This document shows positions 9,311 through 45,220 of a DNA stretch of 45,220 bases, one piece after another; positions within the stretch are counted from its first letter, which is position 1, and each line of letters begins with the position of its first letter. Location of the stretch: the IMG/VR virus record IMGVR_UViG_3300010354_000006. One strand, given 5' to 3'. The translations under genes were made by a program, and so were the position numbers. The notes under the pieces were generated by a model. It made no database searches. It was not told the origin of the DNA and saw only the letters and a program-made list of their open reading frames with translations. This DNA is from a virus.

Positions 9311-9616
9311 TTACCTTTCTCTCTGTCTTTCTTCTTTTAAAAACTCTTTAAAATTATCCTTAAGCTCATTTAAAGCAGCAATAACCATGCGAAAATTCTC
9401 TTCAATTTTAATTGTTGATTTTTCTAAGCCTTTAATATCTTTGCCCTGTTCATCAGTCCTAACTTCTAAAGCTAAAATCTTTTTATCTAAAACTTTTAAT
9501 TGTGGCTCTATGACTAAGTTGTAAAAAATAATAAGTACAGTTAATTCACCACCAATGATTGAACCAACAAGCATTAACAATTCATAGGATTTAAAGATGT
9601 ACTCTGTTTCCGTCAT
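9311..9616 (-). CDS. Membrane-anchored coiled-coil protein (101 aa)
   Basis: N-terminal hydrophobic helix then charged helical region. Confidence 0.45.
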   Translation of the reverse strand: MTETEYIFKSYELLMLVGSIIGGELTVLIIFYNLVIEPQLKVLDKKILALEVRTDEQGKDIKGLEKSTIKIEENFRMVIAALNELKDNFKEFLKEERQRER

Positions 9617-10449
9617 TTTAATACTACAGTAACACCGATTTGCTCTTCTGCTTTACCCGATAAGAAAACTTTTAATAAACCGCCTTCAACTTTAACTAAA
9701 TAATTTAAATTCTCAGGATTAACAGGTAATGAAGCACCATTCGTGTTAGACTTTATTCTGTTTTCGCCTAAAAGATTTTGTATTAAGACTCTCAGCTCAG
9801 CATCAAAAAAAGTACCTTGAGACCCCATAGCTGTAATTTGAATTAAAGCTTTGTAGTTAGACTGCTTTAATTCAAATGCTGCTACTTGGGTAAGCTCGCT
9901 GCTAATTAAAATTGTTTCTTTTGTCGGATATTCAGCACCATCTTTACCCTTTTCGCCTTGCTCGCCCTTCTCCCCTTTCTCGCCCTTTAAATCCCCTAAA
10001 TTATTTTTCCATTCTTCAAATAAAGAAGCTAATTCTTTTTTCGCAAAATCATAATCAAATTCTGCATTTAAGCCATCTTTACCATTAATGCCATCTTTAC
10101 CATCTTTACCATTAATGCCATCTTTACCATTTTTGCCATTAACACCATTCTTGCCATCAAGACCATTCAAGCCATCTTTGCCATCAAGTCCGTTTAAACC
10201 ATCCTTGCCATCAAGTCCGTTTAAACCATCTTTGCCATCAGCTCCATTTAAGCCAGCTTCCCCTTGCTCGCCCTTGTCGCCTTTTTGACCCTTGAGCTTA
10301 TCTACTTTTTTCGCTAAAAGCTTTTCAACTTCTTGATTGAAAACGTCTAAAACCCTTTCTTTTAAAGGCTCTTTAAATTCTTCGCTAAATAGTTCACCTA
10401 TTTGAACTAGTCTGTTTTCTATTTTTGCTGCACCCGCTCCGCCTAACAT
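9613..10449 (-). CDS. Collagen-like repeat protein (Gly-X-Y), probable tail fibre
   Basis: Long run of G-X-Y triplets (GKDGLNGLDGKDGLNGLDGK...) encoded by tandem DNA repeats at about 10080-10260. Confidence 0.65.
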   Translation of the reverse strand: MLGGAGAAKIENRLVQIGELFSEEFKEPLKERVLDVFNQEVEKLLAKKVDKLKGQKGDKGEQGEAGLNGADGKDGLNGLDGKDGLNGLDGKDGLNGLDGKNGVNGKNGKDGINGKDGKDGINGKDGLNAEFDYDFAKKELASLFEEWKNNLGDLKGEKGEKGEQGEKGKDGAEYPTKETILISSELTQVAAFELKQSNYKALIQITAMGSQGTFFDAELRVLIQNLLGENRIKSNTNGASLPVNPENLNYLVKVEGGLLKVFLSGKAEEQIGVTVVLK

Positions 10450-16852: not shown

Positions 16853-19800
16853 TTAATAGCCTCTCAACTCTGCAAGTTGTTTTTCTCTCAATTTTTTCTC
16901 TTTAGCTGCTCTGTCTTTTTGCTTTGCTTCAATCGCATTTTCATATTGCTTTCTACCAGCAGGACTCCACGCATATAATGTTTTACCAGCGATAGGAATA
17001 TTATTCACTAAAATCCTAGACAAGAAAGGATTATATTCTTCGCCTGTATCTACTGCCTTCCTGTATTCTTTTACATCGGCATCTAACGCATCAAGCCATG
17101 GAGCTGCAGGCATAATAAAGCTTCCAAACCCTGCCGCTAAACCTTGCTTATCTAACTTGTAAAACATATAAGGATTTACTATTGGTATAAATGTTTGAAA
17201 AGCTGCCTCAACCGCTCTCTCTTCTAAAGATTGATATTCTTCGCTTGTTTTTCCTTTGATTATATCTTTAAAATAATTAATTCCATAGTTTGAACCACCA
17301 ACTAAAACACTAAGAGCAATAGCGTTTCTTAGGGATTCGCCTAATTGTTTAGTGTTTTGTTTGTTTAATCCTTTAGTTGCAATAGATTTAATCCCATTTG
17401 CCATACCACTGTAGACTTCATCTTTAGTGAATTGAAGCATTTTTAAACTAAAGCTTTTTAACGCATAAAAGAATCTTAGGTCTGGAGCTTGTAAGTATCC
17501 AGCAGGCATATCGCTTAAAGATAAAACTTGCGTTCCTGAAAGGCGTTCAAATAAAGCAAGCCCAATGCTATCATCGTCATACGCTTCTTTTAAATCTTTA
17601 GTACGAAAAGCTTGTACCATTCTATCGGCTTCATCTACCCCGAACATGCTTTTTAAATAAGAATATTCTTTATCGAACTTCGCACCTTTTTCTTTTGTAA
17701 AAACATTTTTAAAATAATTAAATCCTGCATTTAACTGTGTTTCTTGCATTAATTTATTCGCTGCCCTAAAACCGTTTATCTTCAAAGCAAAATCAACAAC
17801 TTTACGAACCACGGAAGGATTATCAGCATAATCCGCACCGATACGGGCAATGCCTAAGTCTAAGGTTTTTACAGTCTCAGGGTCAAATGATTGCCCTAAA
17901 CCTTTAATAGTATTCAAAATACCATTCCTATAAGCACTAGTGCCAAGCTCCGTAGCCTGTGTTATTGTACTTTGAATATCATTCAGAGCAGTAAGCAATG
18001 CTCCGTCTTTAGCTAAACGAGCAAAATTAGCTGGCTTTTTAGGACCATTAACAAAACGTGCTGTAAGTAAATCCTTAACCTTAACAACTTGTTCACTTGA
18101 GATTTCATTGTTTTGTCTTAGACTATCTGTAAAAGCACCGACACTTGTAGTTAAATCTGCACCATCCGCTCTACCAAAGAATTTACGACTCTCTATGTCA
18201 AAAGTAGAGCGATTAATATAATTCTCTAATACTGTAGCTGGGTCTTCGTATAAGTCAGAAAGAAAACGCTCGTTCCCTTTAGCATCCTTAAAAATAATCC
18301 CTTCCATCTGTTGAGCCAATCCCGATCTAGGTTTTCTGTTAGAAAGTGTTGGGGTGCTGCCTACTCCACCGTAACCTCTTAAAAACTTATTAGTAAACTC
18401 AATTCGCTCTAGCTCCTCAAGTTCACGCCCAAGTTTTTTTCTTTCTTTAGCTAAAGCTGTATCGTATTCTGTCCTTGTTGCTGGATCAGCTTTTAAATCA
18501 TCTGTGATTTTATCTAAATCAAAAAGTGAACGCCAAGTCTCAACGCTATCTTTTTTAACACTTGTTGGGAAATAATTTTCAATAAAACCTACTTCAAGCC
18601 CCGCTTCGGTTTGTTGTGCATAAAGATCATCAAGGACAGGTCTAACCCCTGTTTCGTATAGTTCCGTTAAAGGTTTATTTATTAATTTCTCAAAATCTCT
18701 TGCGGTGTCTTCCGCCTCTAAAAATTTTAAAGGTACTTTAAATATTGGTGGCAGTTCCTTAAACTGTCGCCCTTCTTTATCAATCTTAGATAAGAAAGCC
18801 ATGATTGCATCATGGTCGCCTTTAATTAAATAAGAGTTAAAAATTTTCTTTTCATTTTTGCTTAATAATTTCCCTAACTTGCTGAATAAAGGCATTGCTT
18901 GAGATAAATGTTTATTTGCAATTTTTGAACTTGCAAATTCAAACTTGCGAAGCTGCCCTGCTAAAGATGGGTTAATGTCTCTTAAAGCTGATATTATTGG
19001 TTGTACTAAAGTATTCCATAAGTTCCCCGCATTTTCAGCAGTTTGAATAATTTTGTTTTTAGGTTTTTTAGTTGCAGTTGGCATTTCCACAGAAGCATCA
19101 CTAATGAAAGCTCCAGTATTTTCAACTTCCGCTTTCCCTACTTCACTTTTCATTTTTGCTATTAACGCTGGATGGCGGTACATCGCTTTATACATATCGT
19201 TTAAAGCTTCTTTTTCTAATTCAGCTCTTGAGATTGTTTTTTCTTCGGTCTCTATAATCGGGTTGCGTTCTGCCTTAAGCTTTGCTAACTGAGAATCAAT
19301 TTGATCTAATTCCTCTTTAGCAATCATTCGATCAATTTCGATATCATCAGCATTACGCAAAACAGGAGTCTCTATTCCCATCTTCTCTCTGTATTCTCTT
19401 AAAGCATCTTTCTTAAATTGACGATTTAAAGCTACTTCTTTTTGTTTCTTTAATGCCTCTCTACGCCTATTTAAATAATCTATCTTATCTTTAACTTCCT
19501 GCTCAAGCTTTTGCTGTTGCTCTAATAAAGCTTGTTTCTTGGCTTGAAAGTCAGATACAGCTTGATTTCTATTTGCATTAGTTACACTAAGCCTAGTATC
19601 TACATCTGATCTAGCTGCATTGTATTCGTCATCTAATGCTTTAAGTCTCTGTTCTTTAAGTTGTTGCTTTTGTAATTCTATGTCTTGCAAACGCTTTGTT
19701 TCTACATCTGCTTTTAATTGATTTATTTCAGCTTGCTTTGCTTCTAATGCTTGTTGTTGTTTTGTCTTTACAGTCTCTATTTGCTTTGCTACTGTTTCTT

Positions 19801-22468
19801 GTAGTTTTTTTAATTTCTCTGGGTAAGTTTTATTTTTAAATTTATTTAATTGCTCTTGTATTTTATTTCGTTGTTCCTCTGCTTTTTTTAAAGATGGGTT
19901 ATCTAAAATAGGTTTTAATGATTCTTTTTGCTGTAAAAGAGATTCAAGGTTTGCTTTTTCTTCTTTTAGCCCCGATTCAAGTTTTCCAATCTTTTCTTTT
20001 GCAAAAGATTTAATATTCGCTATCTTTTTTTGAGTTGCTTCTTTTACTTGATATTTATATTTACCAAGTGCAATGTTCGCCGTTTTAATACTTGGGATTG
20101 CATTTAGCTCTTCTTGCGTTAAAGACTCCCCTGATTTACTACGCTTATCTCGTCTTTTTTGTTTTAAAGCATTAACTTTATCTTCTTGTGCTTTTAATTG
20201 TTGCTCTGCTTTAGTTTTTACTACTTCAATTTGACGATTAGCCGTTTCGTTTATTTCTTTTAATTTTTGTGCATAAAGTTTTTTAGAAGCATCTAGTCTT
20301 TTTTTTGTTGCAGTTATTATTTTCTCTGTTTCATCAAATTTCTCTAACGCCCCTTCTTGCAGGAAATCACGTTTAATTTTATTGTAAGCAATATCAGCTT
20401 CCTCAGAAGCCTCTTCTAATTTTTGCAATTCAAGCTTTAAGGCATCAATTTTTTTTGTTATAAAAACTTTAATATTTTCAACCTTAGTTTTAACTTCGGA
20501 ACTTAAATCTTTTTGAAATTTGTTAAATGAAATTTTATAAGTAGGATCAAGTTTATTTAATTGCTGTTCTGCTAATTCTGTTTGCTTTGCCTTTAAACTT
20601 TTTTCAAAATCAGCTTGAGATGCCGTTAGTTTACTAGCGACCTGCTCTTCAGTTTGCTTAACTGCTTGAGAATATTGACCTTCTAGTTTTTGATTGTTTC
20701 TTTCTAAGCTTTGTAATCTATTTTCAAAATATTGCTTAACTCGTTTTGCTTTTTTTTCTTTACTTACCGAGTCTGGTAAGTTATTAATTTCATCAAGCGA
20801 TTTAGAATACTCTGCTTTAGTTTGTTCAATTTCACGTGCGTAAGATTCTTGCTTCTGTTTAAATTTAATATCAAGTTCTGCAATTTTTGTTTGCCTAGAT
20901 TCTTCTAGCTGAGTTTTTAAACTTTCGTATTTAGTATTTGTTTCTTTTTGAAAAAGATTAAATTCTTCTTCGTAATTTCTTTGTGGTGCCGTTGCTGTTT
21001 CTTGGGAAACAGTTTCGGGAGTTTCAGTGATTTCTACAGGCTCCGTCTCAGCTTGTTTTTTAGCACGTTGATAAGAGTCATTAACTTGCTTCTGTTGTTT
21101 AGCTAAATTCTTTTCTTCTAAATCAAATGGCTTAGTTAATGTACGCTCTTGCTTGTCTATATCAGCTTTCTGTTTAAGCAGGTTTTTTGTTTTCTGTTCA
21201 CTTTCTCTTTGGATTTCAGATACTAATTTATCTTGCTCTGTGTCTATCTGCTTGAAAGCTGTTTGCTTTTCAGCTTCGTACATCTCATTTAAAGTAGATA
21301 CATTCTGCCTAGTCTCTTCTTTAAGCCCTAAACGTGTTTGCTCTTCTGCTAATTGCCCTTGCCTTTGTTCTGTCAAAGACCTAGCTTGCATTAAATCAGA
21401 TTCAATCTTTTCGTATTTTAATGCTGCTGCTGCTTTTGCTTCTTCTGCTGCCCTTGCTTCGTTAGCACCTTTAGCCTTGTATGCTTCTACATTACGTCTA
21501 TTAAATGCTCTTTTTGTTTCAGCTATACCCTTTAAAGATTCTTTACTATTGCCCCTAAAGATAAAGCCTTCTTGCCCTTGAGCCATTCTGCCCGCTTCTC
21601 TTAAAGCTTGCTTGCCGTAATTTTTGGTTAGTGCTGCTCCAATACCTTCTATCGCTCCACCAAACGTAGTATCTATAGCTAAATTTAGAGCTAAGTCTTT
21701 AAGGTTAATGTTCCCCTCTTCGTCCATTGAAGCCGAGAGAGACAATGGAGAACCTGCTATTGTGTTAGCTGCTGCACCTGCTATAAATCTTTTAGTTCCT
21801 GCTTGTGCTATAACTTTTTTAGTTGCTTCTCGTGCTGCTGTGCCTGCAATCCCTTTAGCTGTTAAATCTTTAAATATGTTTGCCGCTAAAGCACCTTCGC
21901 TAGCTGCTCCAAAAGCTTTAGCATAAATTGACCCACCTCCGAGTAACCCAACTACTGTACCAAGTCCAGTAGGTAAATCTTGGAATCCTTGCCCTTCTTG
22001 TATCCCTGTAACATCACTTGCTAAATCTTGTATGAATTGACCAGTTTGAGCTAGACCTTGAGATACAGGGTCTAACTCTCTCTTAACCCTCTCCCTGCCT
22101 GCAAAAGTATCCATCATTAATTCTGCTGGAGATGGAATAGCTTTAGATGCTCCGTATAAAGCTTTAGGAGCTTCTAACATTAAAGCTGGAATCTCTGCTG
22201 CTGATTTAAGCCCTGCTGCTATTGTCTTGCCAGCTATAGGAATGCTTTGTATTGCATCTGCTATGGCTTTTTTTGCATAAGCTCCTGAATTGATACGGTC
22301 AGGGGTTAATTTGCTTGCTGCAAATTGTAATTCATCTGGAGTTAATTCACGTCCAATATCGTCTTGATAACGAGTTAAAGCTGCCTCTGTGTATTTAACA
22401 GCCTGATCTTTTAAAAGTGGATTTATACTTTTAGCTTTTAAATCTTCAATAAAATTTTCAATTCCCAT
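16853..22468 (-). CDS. Very large virion protein (1871 aa) with long central coiled coil; internal/ejection protein or tape-measure-like
   Basis: Uninterrupted 5.6-kb ORF; central Lys/Glu/Gln-rich heptad region. Confidence 0.55.
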   Translation of the reverse strand: MGIENFIEDLKAKSINPLLKDQAVKYTEAALTRYQDDIGRELTPDELQFAASKLTPDRINSGAYAKKAIADAIQSIPIAGKTIAAGLKSAAEIPALMLEAPKALYGASKAIPSPAELMMDTFAGRERVKRELDPVSQGLAQTGQFIQDLASDVTGIQEGQGFQDLPTGLGTVVGLLGGGSIYAKAFGAASEGALAANIFKDLTAKGIAGTAAREATKKVIAQAGTKRFIAGAAANTIAGSPLSLSASMDEEGNINLKDLALNLAIDTTFGGAIEGIGAALTKNYGKQALREAGRMAQGQEGFIFRGNSKESLKGIAETKRAFNRRNVEAYKAKGANEARAAEEAKAAAALKYEKIESDLMQARSLTEQRQGQLAEEQTRLGLKEETRQNVSTLNEMYEAEKQTAFKQIDTEQDKLVSEIQRESEQKTKNLLKQKADIDKQERTLTKPFDLEEKNLAKQQKQVNDSYQRAKKQAETEPVEITETPETVSQETATAPQRNYEEEFNLFQKETNTKYESLKTQLEESRQTKIAELDIKFKQKQESYAREIEQTKAEYSKSLDEINNLPDSVSKEKKAKRVKQYFENRLQSLERNNQKLEGQYSQAVKQTEEQVASKLTASQADFEKSLKAKQTELAEQQLNKLDPTYKISFNKFQKDLSSEVKTKVENIKVFITKKIDALKLELQKLEEASEEADIAYNKIKRDFLQEGALEKFDETEKIITATKKRLDASKKLYAQKLKEINETANRQIEVVKTKAEQQLKAQEDKVNALKQKRRDKRSKSGESLTQEELNAIPSIKTANIALGKYKYQVKEATQKKIANIKSFAKEKIGKLESGLKEEKANLESLLQQKESLKPILDNPSLKKAEEQRNKIQEQLNKFKNKTYPEKLKKLQETVAKQIETVKTKQQQALEAKQAEINQLKADVETKRLQDIELQKQQLKEQRLKALDDEYNAARSDVDTRLSVTNANRNQAVSDFQAKKQALLEQQQKLEQEVKDKIDYLNRRREALKKQKEVALNRQFKKDALREYREKMGIETPVLRNADDIEIDRMIAKEELDQIDSQLAKLKAERNPIIETEEKTISRAELEKEALNDMYKAMYRHPALIAKMKSEVGKAEVENTGAFISDASVEMPTATKKPKNKIIQTAENAGNLWNTLVQPIISALRDINPSLAGQLRKFEFASSKIANKHLSQAMPLFSKLGKLLSKNEKKIFNSYLIKGDHDAIMAFLSKIDKEGRQFKELPPIFKVPLKFLEAEDTARDFEKLINKPLTELYETGVRPVLDDLYAQQTEAGLEVGFIENYFPTSVKKDSVETWRSLFDLDKITDDLKADPATRTEYDTALAKERKKLGRELEELERIEFTNKFLRGYGGVGSTPTLSNRKPRSGLAQQMEGIIFKDAKGNERFLSDLYEDPATVLENYINRSTFDIESRKFFGRADGADLTTSVGAFTDSLRQNNEISSEQVVKVKDLLTARFVNGPKKPANFARLAKDGALLTALNDIQSTITQATELGTSAYRNGILNTIKGLGQSFDPETVKTLDLGIARIGADYADNPSVVRKVVDFALKINGFRAANKLMQETQLNAGFNYFKNVFTKEKGAKFDKEYSYLKSMFGVDEADRMVQAFRTKDLKEAYDDDSIGLALFERLSGTQVLSLSDMPAGYLQAPDLRFFYALKSFSLKMLQFTKDEVYSGMANGIKSIATKGLNKQNTKQLGESLRNAIALSVLVGGSNYGINYFKDIIKGKTSEEYQSLEERAVEAAFQTFIPIVNPYMFYKLDKQGLAAGFGSFIMPAAPWLDALDADVKEYRKAVDTGEEYNPFLSRILVNNIPIAGKTLYAWSPAGRKQYENAIEAKQKDRAAKEKKLREKQLAELRGY

Positions 22469-33759: not shown

Positions 33760-35349
33760 TTAATAATGCAAAAATTTGCGTTTAGGCTTTGAACTTCGAG
33801 TAATAGTATTATTTTTTAACAAAGGAAATACATTGATAAAAGCATATCCGAGAGCATCCATTAAGTGTTCATAAAACCCATCTTTCTTTGGCTCTTCTTT
33901 AATATGATAAGCCCCCTCTTTTGGCATATCATAAACCCAGCCTGTTTCAAAAGTTTCAACGAATAACCCGTTTCGCTCATCTCCATTTTTAGAAATAAAC
34001 ATTCCCCCCGCAGGATTAACGATGACTCCCATAGCATCACCAATTCTACGAGACATTTTATTTCGTATTGCTATAGCTCTATCTGATGGAGCAGATTTTA
34101 TCCCATGAACTTTACGTTTAAAAAACTTTTCTAATATCTTAAATGCAGGCGGTGCAGTACCTTGACTGTTAGCTGATTTTCCTGCTGGGTCTGCATGTAA
34201 AATATATTCGGCATTGGGGAAATGTTTAGCAATATATTCAGCAATTAAAGCCATGAAATTTTCTAACTCCATATCTTCTGCTAAAATCCCATCATGCAAA
34301 ATGCAGCGATTTAAAGAATCCTTCTGCAAAAATACAACTGCTGGATAATGTGAACCAAAGTCAATTCCGATATGTAAAGGTAAATCTTCATCAAATGGAC
34401 AATCTTTATACGGCTCGCAATGAATTTCTCTAGAAAATTCGGGGATTACAGGTTTGCCAACTGGAACGGTAAACTTAAGTTCGTATTCTTGATCCCAAGT
34501 ATATGTATCTACTCCTGATGCTCCAGGAATTGGCTCACCGTTAGGATAAGCTCCATATCGTTCAGCGTGATACCATTCATCGCTACGTTTAAACGGATTA
34601 GCGGTATAATGAAGCTGTAATACAGTTTGGTTATATTCATTGCGATATTTAGCTAAACCAGTCATTAACTTTTCAATTTGTGAATTTTTAGCAATTTTAG
34701 TTACCAACTCTTGGAATTTAGTACCAAAACGTGGAGTTGATACTAAAGCTGCTCTTCCTCCCCCCTCTAAAGCAGGCTTTAAAGCCTTTAAGTTTTGATC
34801 TACGTTTTGTTGAAAAGCTAACTCATCATAAAAAGCATTAGTAATTGTTAGACCTCTGCATTTATCTGAACCTGATGGCAATGCTGTAATTGTTGAACCG
34901 ATTACAGGATTTCGCATTTCGGAGACTCTAATCTCTTTCCCTTCGGTTAATTTAGGATAAGGGAAGCGAAAATCTAACTTATCATATACCGCTTTACATC
35001 TTGTAGCGATAACCTTTTTAGCTCGATCTTCATTTATTGAAACAATGACATTTTCAGAATAAGGAACAAATAAAAGCTGATGTACCATTAATGTACTAAA
35101 AATATGCGTTGCCATCATACGCCTTGTTTTATTAACAACAATAACTTTATTTTTAAAATATTCATCAATTAAATGCTTAATATAAGCATAAGGCGGAAAG
35201 CGTTTTAATGGACTGCCTCTATCCGATTCATCAATCGTAAAGACCTGTTCGACCATCCAAAGAAAAGGGTCATTTGCCCATTGAGTCATTTTTAAAGTAA
35301 TAAACTCTGGGGTAAAATCTTCATTAGTGTATAGTCTATCTAAAATCAT
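33760..35349 (-). CDS. terL: Terminase large subunit
   Basis: Deviant Walker A-like VVNKTRRMMAT, Walker B-like NAFYDELAF, nuclease-domain-like HIGIDFG / ILHADPAG; size 529 aa. Confidence 0.7.
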   Translation of the reverse strand: MILDRLYTNEDFTPEFITLKMTQWANDPFLWMVEQVFTIDESDRGSPLKRFPPYAYIKHLIDEYFKNKVIVVNKTRRMMATHIFSTLMVHQLLFVPYSENVIVSINEDRAKKVIATRCKAVYDKLDFRFPYPKLTEGKEIRVSEMRNPVIGSTITALPSGSDKCRGLTITNAFYDELAFQQNVDQNLKALKPALEGGGRAALVSTPRFGTKFQELVTKIAKNSQIEKLMTGLAKYRNEYNQTVLQLHYTANPFKRSDEWYHAERYGAYPNGEPIPGASGVDTYTWDQEYELKFTVPVGKPVIPEFSREIHCEPYKDCPFDEDLPLHIGIDFGSHYPAVVFLQKDSLNRCILHDGILAEDMELENFMALIAEYIAKHFPNAEYILHADPAGKSANSQGTAPPAFKILEKFFKRKVHGIKSAPSDRAIAIRNKMSRRIGDAMGVIVNPAGGMFISKNGDERNGLFVETFETGWVYDMPKEGAYHIKEEPKKDGFYEHLMDALGYAFINVFPLLKNNTITRSSKPKRKFLHY

Positions 35350-37291: not shown

Positions 37292-37466
37292 TATTTAAAT
37301 TGATTAATTCCTCAAATGCCCCAAGGTCTTCTCTAACTACAACCCAAGAAGGTGGGATTATGCCTACTACTTCCGTCCAATCAGTAGCGAAACTGGAATC
37401 AAACTGAAACCTATAACTACTACCAACAGTAAAAGTATCTGTTAAATTTCTTTCCATAATCAACAA
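37236..37466 (-). CDS. Hypothetical protein; track start is TTG, likelier ATG at 37455-37457
   Basis: ORF track; first gene of minus-strand block. Confidence 0.3.
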   Translation of the reverse strand: MLIMERNLTDTFTVGSSYRFQFDSSFATDWTEVVGIIPPSWVVVREDLGAFEELINLNNVARVFGRNFKKAVEDGE

Positions 37467-38195
37467 TATACCACGATATATAAAAATATACCACTGTTAA
37501 TTTAAATATATCTCAGCGGGACTTTATCCTTCTAGCTCTCACTAGCCTGCATTGAAAACTCTAGTCTTTCGGTTTAATCACATAGATTTTTATGTGGTTA
37601 GTTATTGCTTGTTTAAATCGGTTTAAATCAATTTCTTTTTATTCTTGGGATGATTATGGCTTTAATAAGGTTTTCTTTTAACCTGTGGCAGAATAAAGGG
37701 GTTTTGTGAAGTTTTCTAGTTGGTTGTTAGGTTGGTTTATTACATTGCTGAAATTTGAAATTTTTTATGTGTAGCGAGAGGGGATGCAGTGATAATTTAA
37801 AGGGGTGGCATGGGGTAAAGGATGTTACCCGTAAATACTTTTCTGCTTTTATTACTCTAGAATTACCCTTATACAGTGCCATATTCAAGATAACATTATA
37901 TTATCTTAAGTAAGAACGTGATTGTAGAGCCATTTCAGTATGTTGTTAAAGATAATATACAGAAATTAAGGGGTAGCTACCGAGTATTGGGGGGTATCTT
38001 ATAGTGATTAATGATTGATGACTGATGATCTCTCTCTTATATATTCTTTATCGCTTGCATGTGTTACCCTGCTCGACACATTAACATCATTTCTCATTCT
38101 AAACAAAAACGAGAAACGAATAAAACTCATTCTCAGAAAGCAACTATTCAATTTTACCTACCTACTAGTAGGTAAAAGTTATACCTAACAATTAA

Positions 38196-38288
38196 GCCTA
38201 AAGTGGACTATAGGGTTTAATTAATATAAAGTCTAAAGTGGACTATAGGGTTACAGTAGTAATAAAGCCTATAGTGGACTATAGGGTT
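38196..38288. repeat. Three direct copies of a 22-bp motif GYCTAWAGTGGACTATAGGGTT (38196-38217, 38231-38252, 38267-38288)
   Basis: Read directly; 35-36 bp periodicity; adjacent 12-bp palindrome CCTACTAGTAGG at 38161-38172. Confidence 0.85.
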
Positions 38289-38516
38289 ATAAAGGCTTTC
38301 TAATCAACATTCCTTACTTATCGGCGTAACGATTAAAAACAAGCGAGGCTAGTATTAGTATCTTTTTGTTGTTTTACTTATGACATAAGACAATAGAACA
38401 TTAAATATATTTAATATATCACACCATAACTATATAATCCCTTGAAACCTAGTCCAGTAGTGCATTTCAAGGATTTATAAGTTATTTGATTGATAAAAAA
38501 ATATTTAATAAAAGTG

Positions 38517-38544
38517 TTGCTTTCTTATGACATTATGGTATAAT
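38517..38544 (+). promoter_or_regulatory. Sigma70-like early promoter: -35 TTGCTT (38517-38522), 16-bp spacer, extended -10 TGGTATAAT (38536-38544)
   Basis: Hexamers read directly; ATG at 38551 is 6 nt after -10, implying a leaderless transcript. Confidence 0.5.
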
Positions 38545-38550
38545 AGAAGT

Positions 38551-38739
38551 ATGGAAAGAAAACAAATTGTTAGTCAAGAGTTTAGTCTAAGATTCATAGG
38601 CTTTAAAAACATAGTAGAAGCTAACTTAGCTATGTTTACTCAGTATCCAGATACTGATACTGGATACAATTTGTTGCACTCGTGCAACAAAAAAAACAAT
38701 ATAGAGCCATGTGAAGATGGCTTTATTTTTTATTGTTAA
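38551..38739 (+). CDS. Small early protein (62 aa), possibly leaderless
   Basis: In-frame ATG inside track ORF 38527..38739, positioned at predicted transcription start. Confidence 0.35.
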   Translation: MERKQIVSQEFSLRFIGFKNIVEANLAMFTQYPDTDTGYNLLHSCNKKNNIEPCEDGFIFYC

Positions 38740-38748
38740 TTAGACCAA

Positions 38749-38778
38749 GACCTAAGCAAGTCTTTAAACTGCTTAAGG
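38749..38778 (+). promoter_or_regulatory. Intercistronic element A copy 1 (imperfect palindrome overlapping RBS)
   Basis: GACCTAAGCAAGTCTTTAAACTGCTTAAGG; TAAGCA / TGCTTA inverted repeat. Confidence 0.6.
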
Positions 38779-38786
38779 AAAAAGAA

Positions 38787-38942
38787 ATGAAAAACAATCA
38801 ACTAATAGAAAAATACAATATCACAGCTAAGGATATAGCAGTAATCGAGGATCATCTTCATTATGGTTATGGTTACGAGTATTTAGAAGCTAGGTTCAGT
38901 TTCTCTGAGTTAGAGGTAATTCTAGACACTTGGAGCATTTAA
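38787..38942 (+). CDS. Small early protein (51 aa)
   Basis: ATG at 38787 after AAGGAAAAAG RBS; track ORF began at TTG 38733. Confidence 0.35.
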   Translation: MKNNQLIEKYNITAKDIAVIEDHLHYGYGYEYLEARFSFSELEVILDTWSI

Positions 38943-38952
38943 TTATTAGGAT

Positions 38953-38982
38953 GACCTGAGCAAGTCTTTAAACTGCTTAAGG
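38953..38982 (+). promoter_or_regulatory. Intercistronic element A copy 2
   Basis: GACCTGAGCAAGTCTTTAAACTGCTTAAGG. Confidence 0.6.
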
Positions 38983-38991
38983 AGTAAAGAA

Positions 38992-39225
38992 ATGAAAAAA
39001 TTTGACCACTTAAAAAACATTAAAAGCCTGCTAAACCAGCAGTTGAAAAAGCATGGGTTAAAACTACCTGTGCATGCTGAGCTGAAAGACATGGCTATTT
39101 TGTCTGATATCTTAGCAGGTAGGATTACAGAAATAGACTTAGCTTTTGCGATAGCAAAGATAGAGTCAAGAGCTGATAAGGCTTGTATAGCAGCTAGCAA
39201 AGTAACAGAAAGGGAGAGTAAGTAA
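38992..39225 (+). CDS. Hypothetical early protein (77 aa)
   Basis: ORF track. Confidence 0.4.
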   Translation: MKKFDHLKNIKSLLNQQLKKHGLKLPVHAELKDMAILSDILAGRITEIDLAFAIAKIESRADKACIAASKVTERESK

Positions 39226-39477
39226 ATGACGATATATTACGCAATAAGCCGAGACATTAAAGAAGCTCAAACAGGGCTTAATAGAATAAGTCACTTAGAT
39301 GATTATTCAGGAACTCCAGAAGAGAAATTAAACGATTTAATCGATGACCACTTAAACTACGTGAATGTATGGAGTGGCAGTTTAGATTTTGCTTACAGCA
39401 GTACAAGTAAGTTTCCTGAATCGGAAAGGTATATTTTAATAACTGAGACTGACACTGGCTTAAAAAGAATTCAATAA
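39226..39477 (+). CDS. Hypothetical early protein (83 aa)
   Basis: ORF track; ATG follows upstream stop. Confidence 0.4.
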   Translation: MTIYYAISRDIKEAQTGLNRISHLDDYSGTPEEKLNDLIDDHLNYVNVWSGSLDFAYSSTSKFPESERYILITETDTGLKRIQ

Positions 39478-39483
39478 ACCAAA

Positions 39484-39512
39484 GACCTAGCAAGTCTTAA
39501 AACTGCTTCAGG
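39484..39512 (+). promoter_or_regulatory. Intercistronic element A copy 3
   Basis: GACCTAGCAAGTCTTAAAACTGCTTCAGG. Confidence 0.55.
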
Positions 39513-39522
39513 AGATAAAAAA

Positions 39523-39936
39523 ATGACAATTAAAATACAAATCGATAAAAAAATATTAGAAGCTGATAGCTTGGCGGTATTAGCTTATAGTGTCGAGAAG
39601 GAAATTAACAAAATACTAGAAATTAAAGAAAGTAGTTACCTTGCAACTCTCTCAATTAAAAGCATGTTACAGGGCTTGCAAGTCTATTCTAATTATCATA
39701 AAAATCTTTCAGCTGATGATTATGAACATTATTGTAGCAATGGTACTTTTAAATTAAACCTACACGAGGAATTAGATGACCCAAAATTAGATTTTCCTCT
39801 GGTGGTCTCACGTTCCATAGATTTATGGCTACAAGGTACTAATGAACCTAAGTTAATAGTCTCTTTCAGAAATGACAATAACCAGCTAGTCATAGATGAT
39901 GAGAACTTGAATAAACTAGATTCATACTTTGCTTAA
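39523..39936 (+). CDS. Hypothetical early protein (137 aa)
   Basis: ORF track. Confidence 0.45.
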   Translation: MTIKIQIDKKILEADSLAVLAYSVEKEINKILEIKESSYLATLSIKSMLQGLQVYSNYHKNLSADDYEHYCSNGTFKLNLHEELDDPKLDFPLVVSRSIDLWLQGTNEPKLIVSFRNDNNQLVIDDENLNKLDSYFA

Positions 39937-40003
39937 AACTATCAGCTAACCGATTCTACACCATCTCAACGGCATGGTGTAGAACTGGTAAGCACCAGTT
40001 AAA
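39937..40003 (+). ncRNA. Intercistronic element B copy 1: conserved leader, 11-bp stem hairpin (39954-39964 / 39974-39984), second short hairpin, then RBS
   Basis: TTCTACACCAT / ATGGTGTAGAA perfect stem; ACTGGT-AAGC-ACCAGT second hairpin. Confidence 0.55.
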
Positions 40004-40023
40004 GAAAAAAGGAAAATAAAAAA

Positions 40024-40707
40024 ATGAATAACTACATAGGTGTCTTAATAAAAAGAAAAAATGGCATATTGACTAATGCTACTTGCTTAGGAATAAGAGA
40101 GTTAATTAAGAACAATAGCCATAACTCGGTATGGTTACAAGCAAATGGTAAATGTTCTTACGGACACTATGCTAAAAAGCATACTGATGGTTATCTATAT
40201 AGCCATGAAGAGTATACGGATAATTGGGATGGTGCAGTATATTCAACAACATTAAAATATTATCCTACCAGTAAACCAGTTCAAATGACAAAATGGCAAC
40301 TAGAAAGAGATCAGATTGAAAAGAAAGAAGATTTACTAGAATCAGCTAAGATATTTTTACGTAACTTGAGCAAAGAATTAATAGAAATAGAAAAATTCAA
40401 TCAGCTAGTATCTGAAGGAATTAAGCAAGATAAAAAAATAACGGGTAGTGAATTAGTATTTTTAGCTGATTACTACAAGGTAGATATTCCCATTAGAACT
40501 CGTGGTTATTATTTAAATAAATTACACAGGGTAACAGCTACTGAGATTAAAGATAAAGAAGTTTCAAGGATTAGTTACCTTGCTGAAGGTAAATTAAATA
40601 GAGATATTCTTTATAGAACATTAGATTTGATCATAAATGAAATGTATCCAGAAGAGGTTACAGTAAAAGAGCAAGAAACTTTCAATCGATTATTTAAAGT
40701 TGCATAG
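40024..40707 (+). CDS. Hypothetical early protein (227 aa)
   Basis: ORF track. Confidence 0.5.
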   Translation: MNNYIGVLIKRKNGILTNATCLGIRELIKNNSHNSVWLQANGKCSYGHYAKKHTDGYLYSHEEYTDNWDGAVYSTTLKYYPTSKPVQMTKWQLERDQIEKKEDLLESAKIFLRNLSKELIEIEKFNQLVSEGIKQDKKITGSELVFLADYYKVDIPIRTRGYYLNKLHRVTATEIKDKEVSRISYLAEGKLNRDILYRTLDLIINEMYPEEVTVKEQETFNRLFKVA

Positions 40708-40776
40708 AACTATCATCAAGCTAACCGCTTCTAGCATATCTAATAGCATATGCTGGAACTGGTTATCACCAGATAA
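40708..40776 (+). ncRNA. Intercistronic element B copy 2: same architecture, stem 40729-40739 / 40748-40758 with compensatory changes
   Basis: TTCTAGCATAT / ATATGCTGGAA (one G-U wobble); CTGGT-TATC-ACCAG. Confidence 0.55.
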
Positions 40777-40791
40777 AGGAAAAAGGAAAAA

Positions 40792-41199
40792 ATGAAAATG
40801 ATTAAAATTAATTATGAAATAGATATAGATTTAATAGTTTCTTTTTTAAAAAGAGCTACACACAGTAGGAATAAGTCTAAAAAAAATAATTCTATAGAAT
40901 TAACTATAGAAGACTGCCATGAAATAAGTGAGCTACTTCACGATTTTACTCCAAAGAGAATCTTCTCTCAAACCAATAGCGAATGTGAATTAATAGATAC
41001 TATGTTCGCTAAAGAAGTCTTAAGAAAACTTCCATTTTTAGCTAAGTGTGAAGGATTTGAGATGGAAAACGGGCTTTTAAGTTCTCTTTCCTATAATTTA
41101 TTTCAGTTTTTAGCTGGAAATTTTGTTTTAGGTGAAACATCTCGTTTAGAATCTGTCAAAACAAAAGCCAATAATAGTTTTTTAGAATTTATTAAATAA
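40792..41199 (+). CDS. Hypothetical early protein (135 aa)
   Basis: ORF track. Confidence 0.45.
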   Translation: MKMIKINYEIDIDLIVSFLKRATHSRNKSKKNNSIELTIEDCHEISELLHDFTPKRIFSQTNSECELIDTMFAKEVLRKLPFLAKCEGFEMENGLLSSLSYNLFQFLAGNFVLGETSRLESVKTKANNSFLEFIK

Positions 41200-41215
41200 A
41201 AGGAAAAATAAACAA

Positions 41216-41536
41216 ATGACAACAATGGAACACACAATAAAAACAACAATAGAAACTATCGAAGGCGTAAGCGATTACAGCTTATTCGCAGTGGACGAAG
41301 CAATTGACTCGCTGGAATTCCAAAAAAGATTAAGTTATGGCTATGCCAAAAATAAACTTAATTTTGAAATAGATTTAATTAATTACTTTAAAAGTCATCC
41401 AAATTTCAACAATATGTGGAACTGTTATAGCTTTGATGAGGAGGACAGCGAAGAGCCAATTAACGTAGAATTTGAATTTGAATTTGAGCTGGAAGATTTA
41501 CCGCAACACTTGCAAGATGGTTACGAAAGTTTTTAG
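41216..41536 (+). CDS. Small highly acidic protein (106 aa) with EFEFEFELED tract
   Basis: Composition read directly. Confidence 0.45.
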   Translation: MTTMEHTIKTTIETIEGVSDYSLFAVDEAIDSLEFQKRLSYGYAKNKLNFEIDLINYFKSHPNFNNMWNCYSFDEEDSEEPINVEFEFEFELEDLPQHLQDGYESF

Positions 41537-41605
41537 AACTATCATCAAGCTAACCGATTCTAGCACTTACTAATCCAAGTGCTGGAACTGGTTATCACCA
41601 GATAT
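41537..41605 (+). ncRNA. Intercistronic element B copy 3: stem 41558-41568 / 41577-41587 with compensatory changes
   Basis: TTCTAGCACTT / AAGTGCTGGAA (one G-U wobble); CTGGT-TATC-ACCAG. Confidence 0.55.
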
Positions 41606-41618
41606 AGGAAAAAAACAA

Positions 41619-41756
41619 ATGACAATATTCAAAACACAACACGATTTAATGAATGATGAGTATTACTTAGAGATACTGGGAATTAGAGTATCCAATGCGA
41701 TAGCTAATTTCTTGGTTAGATTAGGAGTTATTCAAGAGAACGAAAATATTTAGAGC
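41619..41756 (+). CDS. Small hypothetical protein (45 aa), below the ORF-track cutoff
   Basis: ATG directly after element B copy 3. Confidence 0.25.
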
Positions 41757-41790
41757 GAGGATTCAGGAAAAGAAAAAAGGAAATTTAATT

Positions 41791-42054
41791 ATGGTATACA
41801 AAATAGACGAAAAAGAAAACTGTAAAGTTAGAGAAGTTTCTGAATATTTAAGTCGTAAGGGTTACGACAAGGGAATTAACCCTAAATTTAAAGTAGGGGA
41901 TGTTATCCAGTTCCTAACTGGTTATGATTATAACATTCTCGCTGAAGCCAAGATTAAGGGTATAAACGGAAATGATTTATATGTTTACAATGATGCTTAT
42001 TGGTTCGCGATTCAGGACAATGAGCAAAGGAAAATAAAAATCATTCAAGCTTAA
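41791..42054 (+). CDS. Hypothetical early protein (87 aa)
   Basis: ORF track; AAAGGAAA RBS. Confidence 0.4.
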   Translation: MVYKIDEKENCKVREVSEYLSRKGYDKGINPKFKVGDVIQFLTGYDYNILAEAKIKGINGNDLYVYNDAYWFAIQDNEQRKIKIIQA

Positions 42055-42057
42055 ACC

Positions 42058-42147
42058 CAGCCAAAATTTTTAATTTCAGTTGCCTGTATTATAAAGGCAA
42101 CTGGTTCTGATGGTAAAACAAATGACAACAGCCAAAATTTTTAATTT
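42058..42147. repeat. 19-bp perfect direct repeat CAGCCAAAATTTTTAATTT (42058-42076 and 42129-42147) with an 8-bp stem hairpin between (42077-42084 / 42096-42103)
   Basis: Read directly. Confidence 0.8.
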
Positions 42148-42293
42148 TGGAATAAAGTTTTAATTCCCTCGAATAAGGGGGAATTAAAAGCAGTCAAGTA
42201 ATCCTTGACAGCTCAACTATTCGAGATTATCGAATACTTGGATAATCAAGCCTAGAGCTACTATCATTAGGTTGAGTAATCTAGAGTAAATAG

Positions 42294-42577
42294 TTTTCCG
42301 TCTTTTCCGTCATATCTTTTTACTTTCCGTCAAAATGACGAAAGCTATAATACAAGCCTAGTCCGCCTATCCAGTCTTTTCCGTCTTTTCCGTCATTTCC
42401 GTAATGAATAAGTGAAGTTATAAATAATAATATATATATACATATTGATTAATTATTTCATTTATTTATTTTTCTAGACGAAAATGACGAAATGACGGAA
42501 AAACTCTCGATAAGTATACCTAGTCTATATTATAGAGTCCGTCAAACTATGACGGAAAACACTCAAATGACGGAAAA
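42294..42577. promoter_or_regulatory. Putative origin of replication: TTTTCCGTC iterons (42294-42302, 42303-42311, 42323-42331, 42377-42385, 42386-42394), AT-rich core (42411-42476), inverted GACGGAAAA iterons (42494-42502, 42551-42559, 42569-42577)
   Basis: Read directly; lies in an 800-bp ORF-free region upstream of the helicase gene. Confidence 0.6.
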
Positions 42578-42727
42578 CTAGAAACAGATGAGCAAGCTAG
42601 TCAAATATCCTGCAAGCTCGACAGAGCAGCTCGTAAGAGCGGGGGTATTTAAGTTGCGGCTCAACATAAAAACAAATTAAACTAATTACTAAGTTACTTG
42701 TTAGATAAATCTGATATATATATAAGT

Positions 42728-42853
42728 ATGAAGAAATCGGGATTAAATATCCACCTGGAAACAATAGAAAAGCTGAAAGAGTTTAAACCAAGTGGTGTAA
42801 CTTGGGATTATTTTTTATTGGAGTTGCTGAAAGCTTGGGTAGCTAAAGGTTAA
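42728..42853 (+). CDS. Small ORF (41 aa), possible ribbon-helix-helix-like regulator between origin and helicase
   Basis: ATG to TAA read directly; no clear RBS. Confidence 0.25.
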   Translation: MKKSGLNIHLETIEKLKEFKPSGVTWDYFLLELLKAWVAKG

Positions 42854-42857
42854 TCGA

Positions 42858-44600
42858 ATGAAAAATGAACAAGCTTTATTGGGTGCTATTCTTCAGCACG
42901 CAGAATGTAAGTATTTAATCTATGAATTAAAAGCTGATTATTTTTCAAATGACGATAATCGCAAAGTCTTTTTAGCTATGCTGGCATTGCATAATGCTAA
43001 TGAACCTATAGAAATATTCACAGTTAAAAGCAAGGTAGAAGAACTAAATTATTCTGATCTGCTTGGATACATTGAACTATTAAGAGACGTAGCAGATATT
43101 CCATCTAATGTTAGATTCACTCTTAAAAGAATTTTCAAGGCATATAAAGCTAAAGAAGAAAAAAGAATTAAAAGCGAAATAAAATTTCACCAAGATGATT
43201 TACCCAAAGTTCAATCCTTAATTCAAGAGTTTAATGAGCTTAACAAATTAATCGCATTAGACGAAATTAAATTACTCGGTAAAAACAAGGAATCCCAAGC
43301 TCAATTTTGTTTGCAGGATATACTGCCATCACCATTATATGCCTATCTATATGGCATTTCCTCAGTTCCATACAAAGACTTCCCAGTAGAAGCAGCATTC
43401 AGTTTATTTCTTTCCATAGTGGGCAGTCTAGCGGGTACTAAATTCACTATTTCACACCGAAGACACAAAGAACATGCTTTTTGGTGGTCTATGGTGGGTT
43501 TACCCGTAGGATCAGGCAAAACACCTATCTTAAATAACCTAATGAAGCCCTTAACAGTCTTGCAGTACGAAGCTTTAGAAGTTTATAAACAGCAGCTTAA
43601 AGAATTTCAAGAAGTTAAAAAGAAAAAGAAAAAAGATACTTCTCTTGAGGAATTTCAAGAGGAATTACCAGAACCTAAAAGAAAAAGATTTTATTTATCT
43701 GATTCAACAATGGAGACTACATTGAAAGCTCACTCAGATAACCCTAATGGGCTTTTATGGGTCAAGGATGAGCTTAAAGGTCTCTTTAATTCTCTTGGTG
43801 CTTATAAGGGTGGACGGGGAGAAGATAAAGAAACATTACTGTCACTAGGTGCAGGTACTTTTATTTCAGTAGCTAGAAAAGAAACAGATATTGAACTCGT
43901 CAAATCGGCTATTAGCCTCACTGGTGGGATTCAACCTCAAGTATTAAAAGATTTATATTCCAAAGATGGAGATAAAGATAACGGCTTATGGCAGAGATTC
44001 GCCTATATTATCCACGAAACAGTATCAAGAGAAAAAAACCCAGACGATGTAGTCTTAAATGATTCGATATTAACTAAGCTCTATTCCCATATTATTAGCT
44101 CAGAGGGTGCTAGCTTAGTCTTTGCTGATTATGATTATGTCGAATGGGTATCAGATTATTTTAATGAAGAGATAGATAAAGCTCCAACACCAGCAATGCA
44201 AGCATATTACACTAAATGCTTTGGGTTTTTCTTAAGGCTTTCTATTTTGTTGCATATTCTTGATTCGCACTTCTCTTATCTGTCTTACGATAGACCAGTT
44301 AGCAGAACTACCAGCGAAAATGCTTTTTCCTTAATTGTGGCTTACATTTCCCATGCTGAAAAACTATTTTATGTTAAAACCATCAAAAGCAAAGATCAAC
44401 AATTTATCAATAAAATTCTTGATAAGCCTTTAGCTAAAAGAACAATTAATGAAATCGCTAAAACTATTACTCAACGTGTTGATAAACCTTCTGATTATGC
44501 CCGCTATCTATTTGAGCTTATGCAAGAAGCAGGCTTAGGTACTATCAACAAAACCAACGGCAAAAACTGGCAATTCGCTTTAAAGGGAGAAACAATATGA
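42858..44600 (+). CDS. Replicative helicase / replication initiator with DnaB-like N-terminal domain and Walker A P-loop
   Basis: N-terminus NEQALLGAILQHAE...FSNDDNRKVFLAML...EPIEIFTV matches DnaB N-terminal pattern; P-loop VGLPVGSGKTPIL. Confidence 0.55.
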   Translation: MKNEQALLGAILQHAECKYLIYELKADYFSNDDNRKVFLAMLALHNANEPIEIFTVKSKVEELNYSDLLGYIELLRDVADIPSNVRFTLKRIFKAYKAKEEKRIKSEIKFHQDDLPKVQSLIQEFNELNKLIALDEIKLLGKNKESQAQFCLQDILPSPLYAYLYGISSVPYKDFPVEAAFSLFLSIVGSLAGTKFTISHRRHKEHAFWWSMVGLPVGSGKTPILNNLMKPLTVLQYEALEVYKQQLKEFQEVKKKKKKDTSLEEFQEELPEPKRKRFYLSDSTMETTLKAHSDNPNGLLWVKDELKGLFNSLGAYKGGRGEDKETLLSLGAGTFISVARKETDIELVKSAISLTGGIQPQVLKDLYSKDGDKDNGLWQRFAYIIHETVSREKNPDDVVLNDSILTKLYSHIISSEGASLVFADYDYVEWVSDYFNEEIDKAPTPAMQAYYTKCFGFFLRLSILLHILDSHFSYLSYDRPVSRTTSENAFSLIVAYISHAEKLFYVKTIKSKDQQFINKILDKPLAKRTINEIAKTITQRVDKPSDYARYLFELMQEAGLGTINKTNGKNWQFALKGETI

Positions 44601-44998
44601 ACGACCTAGCAGAAATCCAAGCAGAACTAAAAGAACTCCATCAAGAGTTTTTAGATTACGCTGAAAAAATTAAAGATGTTAGCCGTAGACTAGGCTTACT
44701 GGTCAAAGATTCCGATAACGCTATCCTGAAATGGCAAGTACACCATTACTGGCTAAACAATGTTGATCGCAAATTTAAAATCCTAGACGAAGAGCTAGAT
44801 AATGAGATCGCAGCTCCATTTAGTGCTTTACCACCAGTTACAGCAAACCCTATCTACAAGGACTTAACCCTTAAGATCGAGGCTTTCAGGCTCTTGAATC
44901 CTGACATAGATGAGCTAGAAGCACAAAAGAGAATTTCTAAGATCGTTAAAGAGCATGTCCAAAGCAGAAGGCACAAGCAGGGAGAGGAAAAACAATGA
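44597..44998 (+). CDS. Hypothetical protein (133 aa)
   Basis: ORF track; ATGA overlap with helicase stop. Confidence 0.45.
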   Translation: MNDLAEIQAELKELHQEFLDYAEKIKDVSRRLGLLVKDSDNAILKWQVHHYWLNNVDRKFKILDEELDNEIAAPFSALPPVTANPIYKDLTLKIEAFRLLNPDIDELEAQKRISKIVKEHVQSRRHKQGEEKQ

Positions 44999-45081: not shown

Positions 45082-45186
45082 ATGAACGAACTAGAAGAAT
45101 TAAAAACAGTGCAATTAATTATTAATTTTGTCGTAGTAATAGCTATCCTAGCTGTAGCCGTAACAGTTGGGAGGTACTTGGGATGA
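45082..45186 (+). CDS. Small membrane peptide (34 aa, single predicted TM helix); stop overlaps ATG of the 65-aa ORF (equivalent to 86..283)
   Basis: AAGGAAAAG RBS; hydrophobic core IINFVVVIAILAVAVTV. Confidence 0.3.
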   Translation: MNELEELKTVQLIINFVVVIAILAVAVTVGRYLG

Positions 45187-45220
45187 GAGAATTAGACCGC
45201 CAAAAATGGCTTCCAGTGGA
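45098..45220. repeat. Second copy of the 123-bp terminal direct repeat
   Basis: Exact match to 1-123. Confidence 0.9.

Follow-up and report, generated by a model that had tools for sequence, protein, structure and literature searches.

What role do hairpin-bearing elements play at the junctions between early phage genes, and are they kept there for their fold? This question is raised by the viral record IMGVR_UViG_3300010354_000006, a stretch of 45,220 nucleotides (nt) that was analyzed in full and is referred to here as the window. Three genes in its early region are each followed by a copy of an intercistronic element, named element B, and an initial annotation made from the sequence had described a covarying hairpin in these copies. 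We compared the copies with one another and with their counterparts in related phages. The comparison indicates that the hairpins are under selection and that the elements are sites of gene exchange, and it is compatible with a function of element B in RNA processing or stability.

Three copies of element B follow early genes

The positions assigned to the three elements in the initial annotation, as well as their starts at stop codons, were all confirmed. Copies B1 (39937-40003), B2 (40708-40776), and B3 (41537-41605), which belong to an element of 67 to 71 nt, lie on the plus strand directly after the stop codons TAA (39934-39936), TAG (40705-40707), and TAG (41534-41536), and they were scored by a covariance model at 68.7, 86.5, and 87.2 bits, respectively. 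From 5' to 3', the element consists of a box that abuts the upstream stop and reads (TAR)AACTATCATCAAG then CTAACCGC, a hairpin of 11 to 12 base pairs (bp) with a stem designated stem 1, a small hairpin of 5 bp, and an unstructured, A-rich ribosome-binding site that was unpaired in every predicted fold. The leader of B1 (39937-39953) contains a shortened box (AACTATCA-GCTAACCGA), its stem arms at 39954-39964 and 39974-39984 (TTCTACACCAT / ATGGTGTAGAA) enclose a loop at 39965-39973, and its small hairpin at 39985-39998 (CTGGT-AAGC-ACCAG) leads into an A-rich Shine-Dalgarno spacer (40004-40026, plus strand) that includes the ATG (40024) of a 227-amino acid ORFan; the gene for this protein occupies the interval between B1 and B2. 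The B2 leader (40708-40728) has the full box and is followed by stem arms at 40729-40739 and 40748-40758 (TTCTAGCATAT / ATATGCTGGAA, one U-G), a small hairpin at 40759-40772 (CTGGT-TATC-ACCAG), and the equivalent spacer at 40773-40794 with the next ATG at 40792. The corresponding parts of B3 are a leader (41537-41557), stem arms at 41558-41568 and 41577-41587 (TTCTAGCACTT / AAGTGCTGGAA, one U-G), a small hairpin (41588-41601), and a spacer (41602-41621) with the next ATG at 41619.

Two segments, AGCTAACCGNTTCTA and GAACTGGTNNNCACCAG, have exactly three exact matches each in the genome, all of them in these copies, and the covariance model revealed no fourth full copy in the window. Folding of the plus strand gave z-scores of -5.9, -3.6, and -5.7 for B1, B2, and B3, respectively, in comparison to dinucleotide shuffles. 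The stems of B1 and B2 differ at four positions and those of B2 and B3 at two, and all six differences are compensated. A recent triplication followed by drift is ruled out as the origin of the copies because every stem difference is compensated. The annotated picture of an 11-bp stem with five conserved outer pairs was correct for the compensated inner changes, but the outer pairs are less uniform than described: B2 and B3 each have one U-G wobble there, and the outer pairs vary in relatives (TTCCAG, TACTAG, and TCTTAG).

The hairpins covary among related phages

Within IMG/VR, a record with 99.98% identity represents the same phage, and the other relatives, which were found through the terminase, mostly end before the early region. 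Homologues of the 227-amino acid protein (58-91% identity) led us to contigs bearing the early region of related phages, and a metagenome scan with the leader sequence provided four further contigs; at least one related contig is labelled as freshwater metagenome. A covariance-model search against related phages had been proposed in the initial annotation. Using nhmmer and a covariance model, we identified 20 full elements in the window and in eight related metagenomic phages; 19 of these elements are distinct, and the stem covaries across them.

In both the MAFFT and the model-based alignments, 9 of the 11 pairs of stem 1 change on both sides and 96.7% of the cells pair, with at least nine different stem sequences among the copies; because many copies share ancestry, fewer independent events took place than the covarying cells would suggest. 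None of 500 shuffles reached the observed values on four of five measures, one of 500 did so on the fifth, and pairing fell to 19-48% in controls for which the partner was slid by one to three columns. The small hairpin occurs with two arm versions, CTGGT/ACCAG and ATGGC/GCCAT, that differ by two double changes. When this hairpin was parsed by hand, all of its cells (95 of 95) were found to pair; the model alignment had put four of the five longer-loop copies in the wrong place. Stem 1 includes nine G-U cells versus two A-C cells, with three of the G-U pairs contributed by a single copy (L245). This excess means that the sense strand pairs better, as for RNA, and it provides moderate evidence for an RNA fold, given that several of the cells share ancestry. 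Judged by sequence comparison, the hairpins are kept by selection for sense-strand pairing, and the proposal that selection on a fold, not drift, shaped the copies is borne out by the covariation across the 19 distinct examples.

Searches beyond this set of phages gave negative results. A scan of positions 37400-42900 against Rfam 15 yielded only chance-level matches (E above 1), and no tRNA or tmRNA was found. An 18-nt probe detected no copy in 185,579 bacterial species genomes, where five isolated matches were attributed to chance. GenBank phages included no relative of the early region or of element B, and IMG/VR scans with probes of 14 to 15 nt returned chance matches plus the same phage only. 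More distant phages that encode an ERF recombinase lack the element B family, save for one junction with the box only. Many of the contigs from IMG/VR and metagenomes (L084-L096, L255, and L260) end at or just before the early region; repeated junction elements likely break assemblies, with the consequence that public viral catalogues would under-represent this region.

Several other identities were considered and rejected. A likeness of AAGCUAACCG...GGUUAUCACC to the sequence AAGGUAACCG...GGUUGGAUCACC in the 3' domain of 16S rRNA was dropped as chance after models of the small-subunit rRNA gave no match. The UUCUAC...GUAGAA motif of B1, which recalls a Cas12a repeat and suggested a CRISPR-repeat or RNA anti-CRISPR identity, is not kept in the other copies. 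For a trans-acting antisense partner of the leader, the best duplex in the genome was -18 kcal/mol, within the range obtained for shuffled leaders.

A predicted alternative long fold pairs the leader with the small hairpin

The stem and the second short hairpin of the initial annotation are both present, but the minimum-energy fold of most copies is one long interrupted hairpin of 17 to 19 bp, comprising a lower stem of 6 to 7 bp, a single-base internal loop, and an upper stem of 11 to 12 bp. This long conformer depends on a pairing that had not been described, in which the leader GCUAACCG pairs with UGG and the last base of the 5' arm of the small hairpin as well as with its loop. Seven of eight positions are complementary in all 19 copies, and the place of the single mismatch changes from one to another of the three small-hairpin types. 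The lower-stem G-U, which also speaks for the sense strand, is unchanged in 18 of 19 copies. The calculated energies of the long fold and the two-hairpin fold are 0-5 kcal/mol apart in nearly all copies. Both folds are plausible according to these predictions, and element B may be a two-state element.

Related phages have exchanged genes at the elements

The initial annotation had also suggested that the elements are cassette boundaries, and we compared the gene content between them across relatives. When the window was aligned to each relative by blastn, the blocks of homology began and ended in element spacers, and the flanking genes were shuffled. Twenty of the 24 block ends (contig ends excluded) lie in spacers, which account for 13% of the early region; the corresponding binomial figure of 2e-14 overstates the significance since the events are not independent. 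Across the five phages that have an element before the 227-amino acid gene, we found four upstream gene families and five stems at this position. Compared with the window, L101 has this gene and the 135-amino acid family (F1 and F4) in inverted order, the window genes at 38939-39532 are placed downstream rather than upstream of the 227-amino acid gene in L111, and the 135-amino acid gene is replaced in L234. The same main stem occurs with different small-hairpin loops, which indicates crossovers inside the element. These comparisons, made entirely between sequences, establish the elements as points where related phages exchanged, reordered, or lost ORFan genes, and the notion of cassettes that are replaced and reordered at their boundaries was upheld.

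Cassette-like shuffling with elements at the boundaries, together with the imperfect inverted repeat that extends across the whole element, might be ascribed to a site- or structure-specific recombination site that acts in single-stranded DNA, as does attC, or to a selfish inverted repeat resembling a miniature inverted-repeat transposable element. We regard both as very unlikely. The attC core (GTTRRRY) is absent from the element sequences, and no integrase or transposase was present among the open reading frames (ORFs) scanned. Crossovers are spread over the leader, the joint between stem and small hairpin, and the ribosome-binding site, with no fixed spot. No target-site duplication is visible, and copies were lacking from the bacterial genomes and other phages searched. 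The ORFs scanned, a set that covered part of the small ORFs, also included no tyrosine or serine recombinase; the only recombinase found was an ERF-family single-strand annealing protein (2037-2480, plus strand; PF04404, E 3.4e-32). Its presence points to homologous exchange through the conserved flanks. ERF is a candidate enzyme for exchange at such short conserved flanks, and we infer that it participates in the shuffling.

The box is a separate module

The box ACTATCATCAAG is an independent module, a point absent from the initial description. In L105 and L111/L236, each 4.5 kb of early region has 6 to 8 copies of it, all of them on the sense strand. The box occurs in five settings. It forms the head of full elements; it directly precedes a ribosome-binding site with no hairpin, as after the 227-amino acid gene in L102, L105, and L111; it is fused to the hairpin of a second element, element A (L111 4039-4103, and L236); it is located in the non-coding region beside replication iterons, where the window has a degenerate copy (ACTATCATTAGG) after a TAG (42260-42271, plus strand) at a position kept in L102; and a few copies reside inside coding sequence and evolve like ordinary codons. 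The coding-sequence copies (0-2 mismatches) were noted at 44541-44552 of the window, corresponding to the 3' end of the helicase gene, at L102 7811, at L105 7847, 8897, and 9589, and at equivalent positions. Those of the relatives lie in genes for proteins of 166, 186, and 250 amino acids. All these copies vary at synonymous positions like the surrounding codons; they are far above chance and may be relics of junctions absorbed into genes.

Element A (GACCTAAGCAAGTCTTTAAACTGCTTAAGGA) constitutes a second junction family, with plus-strand copies at 38736-38787, 38940-38991, and 39470-39521. The 3' arm of its bulged hairpin overlaps with the AAGGA that serves as the Shine-Dalgarno sequence for the following gene. 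Like element B, element A coincides with breakpoints of homology, and relatives have it joined to the leader of element B. From these combinations, the modules (box and hairpins) evidently recombine independently.

The properties of the box bear on two further explanations. The elements could be operators at which an RNA-binding protein of the phage, regulating translation or stability, reads the box, and perhaps the hairpin, on every early cistron; an unannotated early protein would then co-ordinately repress or time the cistrons, in the manner of T4 RegA or coat-protein operators. Phages with ~70% identical coding DNA have an identical box, as for a sequence-specific ligand, and its frequency and restriction to the sense strand in the early regions are also in keeping with this idea. 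The regulator could be among the early proteins, ten of which (encoded at 38551-42054 and 44597-44998) were scanned and gave zero Pfam or PHROG matches. We nevertheless consider this explanation doubtful because in full elements a distance of 45-70 nt separates the box from the start codon downstream, a long one for a translational operator, because the free sequence of the stem means that the hairpin is not the specific determinant, and because no RNA-binding domain was found among the scanned early proteins. The second explanation takes the box to be a DNA site, such as an asymmetric operator like the mycobacteriophage "stoperator," a nicking site, or a recombination hot spot, and makes the hairpins secondary. 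The box is indeed asymmetric, measures 12 to 13 bp, has a single orientation with respect to transcription, is situated in short intergenic spacers by stop codons, and also exists alone without hairpins; moreover, its GACTAT part resembles the half-site of three tandem palindromes at 38197-38285. A DNA site is unlikely in our estimation, as it does not account for hairpins that have compensatory changes and a G-U bias, the coding-sequence copies evolve as ordinary codons, several full elements have deletions of 1 to 4 nt inside the box, and no DNA-binding protein was identified.

A model for element B in the early transcript

We favor, with a probability of roughly 0.5, the interpretation that element B is an intercistronic RNA processing or stability module whose flanks double as recombination junctions. 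In the early polycistronic mRNA, element B would first fold as the interrupted hairpin of 17 to 19 bp, with the leader GCUAACCG paired to UGGNNNNC to form the lower stem beneath the covarying stem. A double-strand-specific endonuclease, e.g., the host RNase III, would cut near the lower stem, and the covarying stem would stay on the upstream message as a protective 3' hairpin. The freed CUGGU would refold with ACCAG, thus capping the 5' end of the downstream message just before the open ribosome-binding site. If the small hairpin formed at the new 5' end after such a cut, the conservation of both pairings would be explained. Each cassette would thus carry a standard, context-independent signal for expression and stability. 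Both the leader (~21 nt) and the GGAACTGGT...CACCAG segment show almost no differences among copies or among phages, and they would also serve as short homology tracts, probably for the phage ERF, by which cassettes are moved. RNase III substrates have been described as helices of ~20-22 bp for which internal loops direct single-strand cuts that leave stabilizing 3' hairpins (PMC3867540), and the long conformer fits the size and interrupted shape in that description.

Several observations weigh against this model. An RNase III-type step possibly takes place at element B, and we place it there purely by inference. The leader never varies, leaving the lower stem with no covariation of its own, and the two compensated changes in the small hairpin favor that hairpin over the lower stem at those positions. 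At the junction matching that of B2, some relatives possess only the box; the hairpins are dispensable there, and their role would be modulatory. The 12-nt box is identical between phages with proteins of 60-85% identity, which a spacer or processing site need not require; it may have its own RNA-binding or DNA-binding ligand, a feature that the model does not explain. The shared ancestry of many copies, mentioned above in relation to the covariation counts, is to be added to these points.

A more elaborate and rather unlikely scheme treats element B as a bistable RNA device in which a terminating ribosome or a box-binding phage factor picks between the two folds and ERF drives the excision and re-insertion of cassettes. 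According to this scheme, the invariant box would be one ribosome footprint after the stop codon, the long hairpin would cause the junction to be cut or silenced, and the two-hairpin state would allow the downstream cistron to be protected and translated. If true, a lytic phage would possess a gene-shuffling system that is like an integron but has no integrase.

Predicted transcription signals of the early operon

The RNA processing or stability module proposed here would be part of an early operon, for which a probable early promoter was read from the sequence at 38517-38544 on the plus strand (TTGCTT, 16 nt, TGgTATAAT with an extended -10). This promoter, which probably drives the operon holding the element B copies, was overlooked by a simple promoter scan, as its -35 matches at only three of six bases. 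The first small ORF after it starts with the ATG at 38551 and may be leaderless. At the end of this ORF, and upstream of all junction elements, there is a terminator-like hairpin with a U-tract (38701-38735); the promoter and this terminator may form a regulated entry point to the operon. Internally, the operon is not enriched in promoters and terminators, and promoter-like sites are no commoner than in shuffles. About 250 bp upstream of the promoter, in a ~1-kb non-coding divergent region, are three tandem repeats of 35 to 36 bp (38191-38296), each with a near-palindrome, CCTA(A/T)AGTGGACTATAGG, that has 8-bp arms and a 2-bp spacer. L085 has kept these repeats, and L096 has kept them in part. 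They resemble operators to which a dimeric DNA-binding protein would attach, and their half-site has GACTAT in common with some copies of the box.

Could element B itself control transcription, as a terminator or attenuator lacking a U-tract or as a nut- or put-like antitermination site? The succession of a 12-nt box, an 8-nt spacer, a hairpin, and an adjoining second hairpin loosely recalls the boxA-boxB layout and that of the two-stem put RNAs, and the terminator-like hairpin at 38701-38735 is located early in the operon. There is, however, no U-tract after either hairpin on either strand, which speaks against an intrinsic terminator and agrees with the earlier statement that these are not classical terminators. 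All B copies are downstream of the only convincing terminator and are not placed for read-through of it, there is one element per gene, unlike the usage of nut or put, and the hairpins are missing from the same junction in relatives. We therefore think it improbable that element B controls transcription. Lambda nut and HK022 put sites occur once per operon, lie between a promoter and the terminators that are to be overridden, and have a boxA consensus or two large put stems; an identity with them was rejected from the number and location of the elements and the lack of an Rfam match. A sigma-70 promoter was likewise not found on the plus strand of the three copies: the -10-like TATCAT in the box has no associated -35 or TG, it is replaced by TATCAG, TATCAC, or TATAAC in some copies, and its last T is lost in 4 of 19 copies.

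Genome organization

The window is a complete phage genome of ~45.1 kb with its first 123 bases repeated at the end. The terminal redundancy (1-123 and 45098-45220) is exact over 123 bp; it is either an overlap from circular assembly or a direct terminal repeat of the short type. Structural and packaging genes, including that for the large terminase (33760-35349), are on the minus strand at 8.7-37.5 kb. Early and replication genes are on the plus strand from ~38.5 kb through the genome end to ~8.5 kb; they include a DnaB-like helicase gene (42858-44600) and, at 1095-2480, genes for a lysozyme, a Gp157/Gam-like protein, and the ERF recombinase. The terminase is distant from those of Pelagibacter, Methylophilales, and other podophages (24-30% identity).

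Just upstream of the helicase gene (42290-42580), a very AT-rich stretch is flanked by the 9-mer TTTTCCGTC or its complement GACGGAAAA, which is present in both orientations and in at least eight copies. L102 has the same arrangement of iterons, which is probably a replication origin. A 41-nt repeat motif, AATGAGATTTTTAATTAACTTTTTAAAAGCACTTGGAGTTT, is found toward the end of the plus-strand gene block, at 6584-6624, 6889-6929, and 8677-8717, with two of the copies being 95% identical. On the minus strand, a long run of 9-bp periodic repeats at 9930-10290 (ORF 9613-10449) encodes collagen-like Gly-X-Y triplets in a 278-amino acid protein of the tail region. A 1871-amino acid ORF of the structural module (16853-22468, minus strand) gave no match in PHROG, and its A/T composition is strongly skewed at ~19-22 kb; it may be a tape-measure-like or internal virion protein.

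Comparison with known systems

The early regions of lytic phages have many fast-changing genes, and how these genes move and how their expression is maintained is understood for very few groups. Element B is a real and well-supported feature at the sequence level, with solid comparative evidence. In a lineage of uncultured freshwater phages, it provides a family of junction modules that is defined by sequence, with strong hairpin covariation, a conserved box, and comparative evidence for cassette exchange at the junctions. The elements look like portable "connectors" for small ORFan genes, and the family represents a small, standardized intercistronic spacer of natural origin as well as a candidate two-state RNA that can be put to the test.

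The analogy to integron attC sites that was drawn in the initial annotation is not retained as a mechanism. Both types of element are directly after the ORF of a cassette, mark the cassette boundary, and have a stem with conserved outer and variable inner pairs. Element B differs in having no core motifs (RYYYAAC ... GTTRRRY), which in attC come with extrahelical bases in the folded bottom strand, and no fixed crossover point, and among the ORFs scanned there was neither an integron integrase nor another tyrosine or serine recombinase, whereas ERF is present. In addition, the better-paired strand is the sense strand, and the link to the ribosome-binding site along with the G-U bias point to RNA.

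The REP/BIME, ERIC, and Neisseria Correia/NEMIS sequences are dispersed, co-transcribed intergenic inverted repeats that form structures in RNA and that, where this is known, change how stable the flanking cistrons are or how they are processed. Element B is similar in being an intergenic inverted repeat predicted to fold in RNA. Those sequences are chromosomal, number tens to hundreds of copies, and in some cases have transposon-like ends; in contrast, element B is restricted to the early operon within a single group of phages.

The early region of T7 has RNase III sites in the form of related intercistronic hairpins within one polycistronic early transcript. The layout resembles that of element B, for which the operon is predicted only, and both have a helix of about two turns with small internal loops and no terminator function. 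Cleavage of element B would, as at such sites, leave a 3' hairpin on the upstream message (PMC3867540). The differences are that element B has no sequence similarity to the T7 sites and no Rfam match, that it adds a conserved single-stranded box and a competing small hairpin, and that it is facultative at any one junction.

A close parallel to the cassette behavior is provided by the promoter-early stem-loop (PeSL) elements, which are mobile regulatory cassettes that serve as homology tracts for recombination in T4-type phages (Arbiol et al. 2010, PMC2839356; Comeau et al. 2014, PMC4122927). Another character of PeSLs is that recombination between flanking elements yields excised mini-circles. 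Element B and PeSLs are both repeated composite elements that fill the space from the upstream stop to the next start, contain a stem-loop and a Shine-Dalgarno sequence, are gathered among early-region ORFans, hold the ends of indels or replacements between relatives, and undergo homologous recombination at several points within the element. Membership of element B among the PeSLs, which the initial annotation had raised as an analogy, is not supported because it has no sigma-70 promoter (-35, -10, and AT-rich UP element), the defining feature of a PeSL. Its hairpin is not rich in G/C tracts and does not have terminator features; a PeSL-type terminator or attenuator would consist here of a stable stem-loop with no U-tract. 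Element B also possesses a second hairpin, an alternative long pairing, and an invariant box. The carriers also differ, being T4-like myoviruses for PeSLs and a 45-kb podovirus-like genome in the present case. Element B thus resembles a T4 PeSL without the promoter and appears to act on RNA rather than as a promoter. If the elements are indeed connectors, the PeSL concept of regulatory repeats that are also recombination linkers would reach beyond the T4-like phages.

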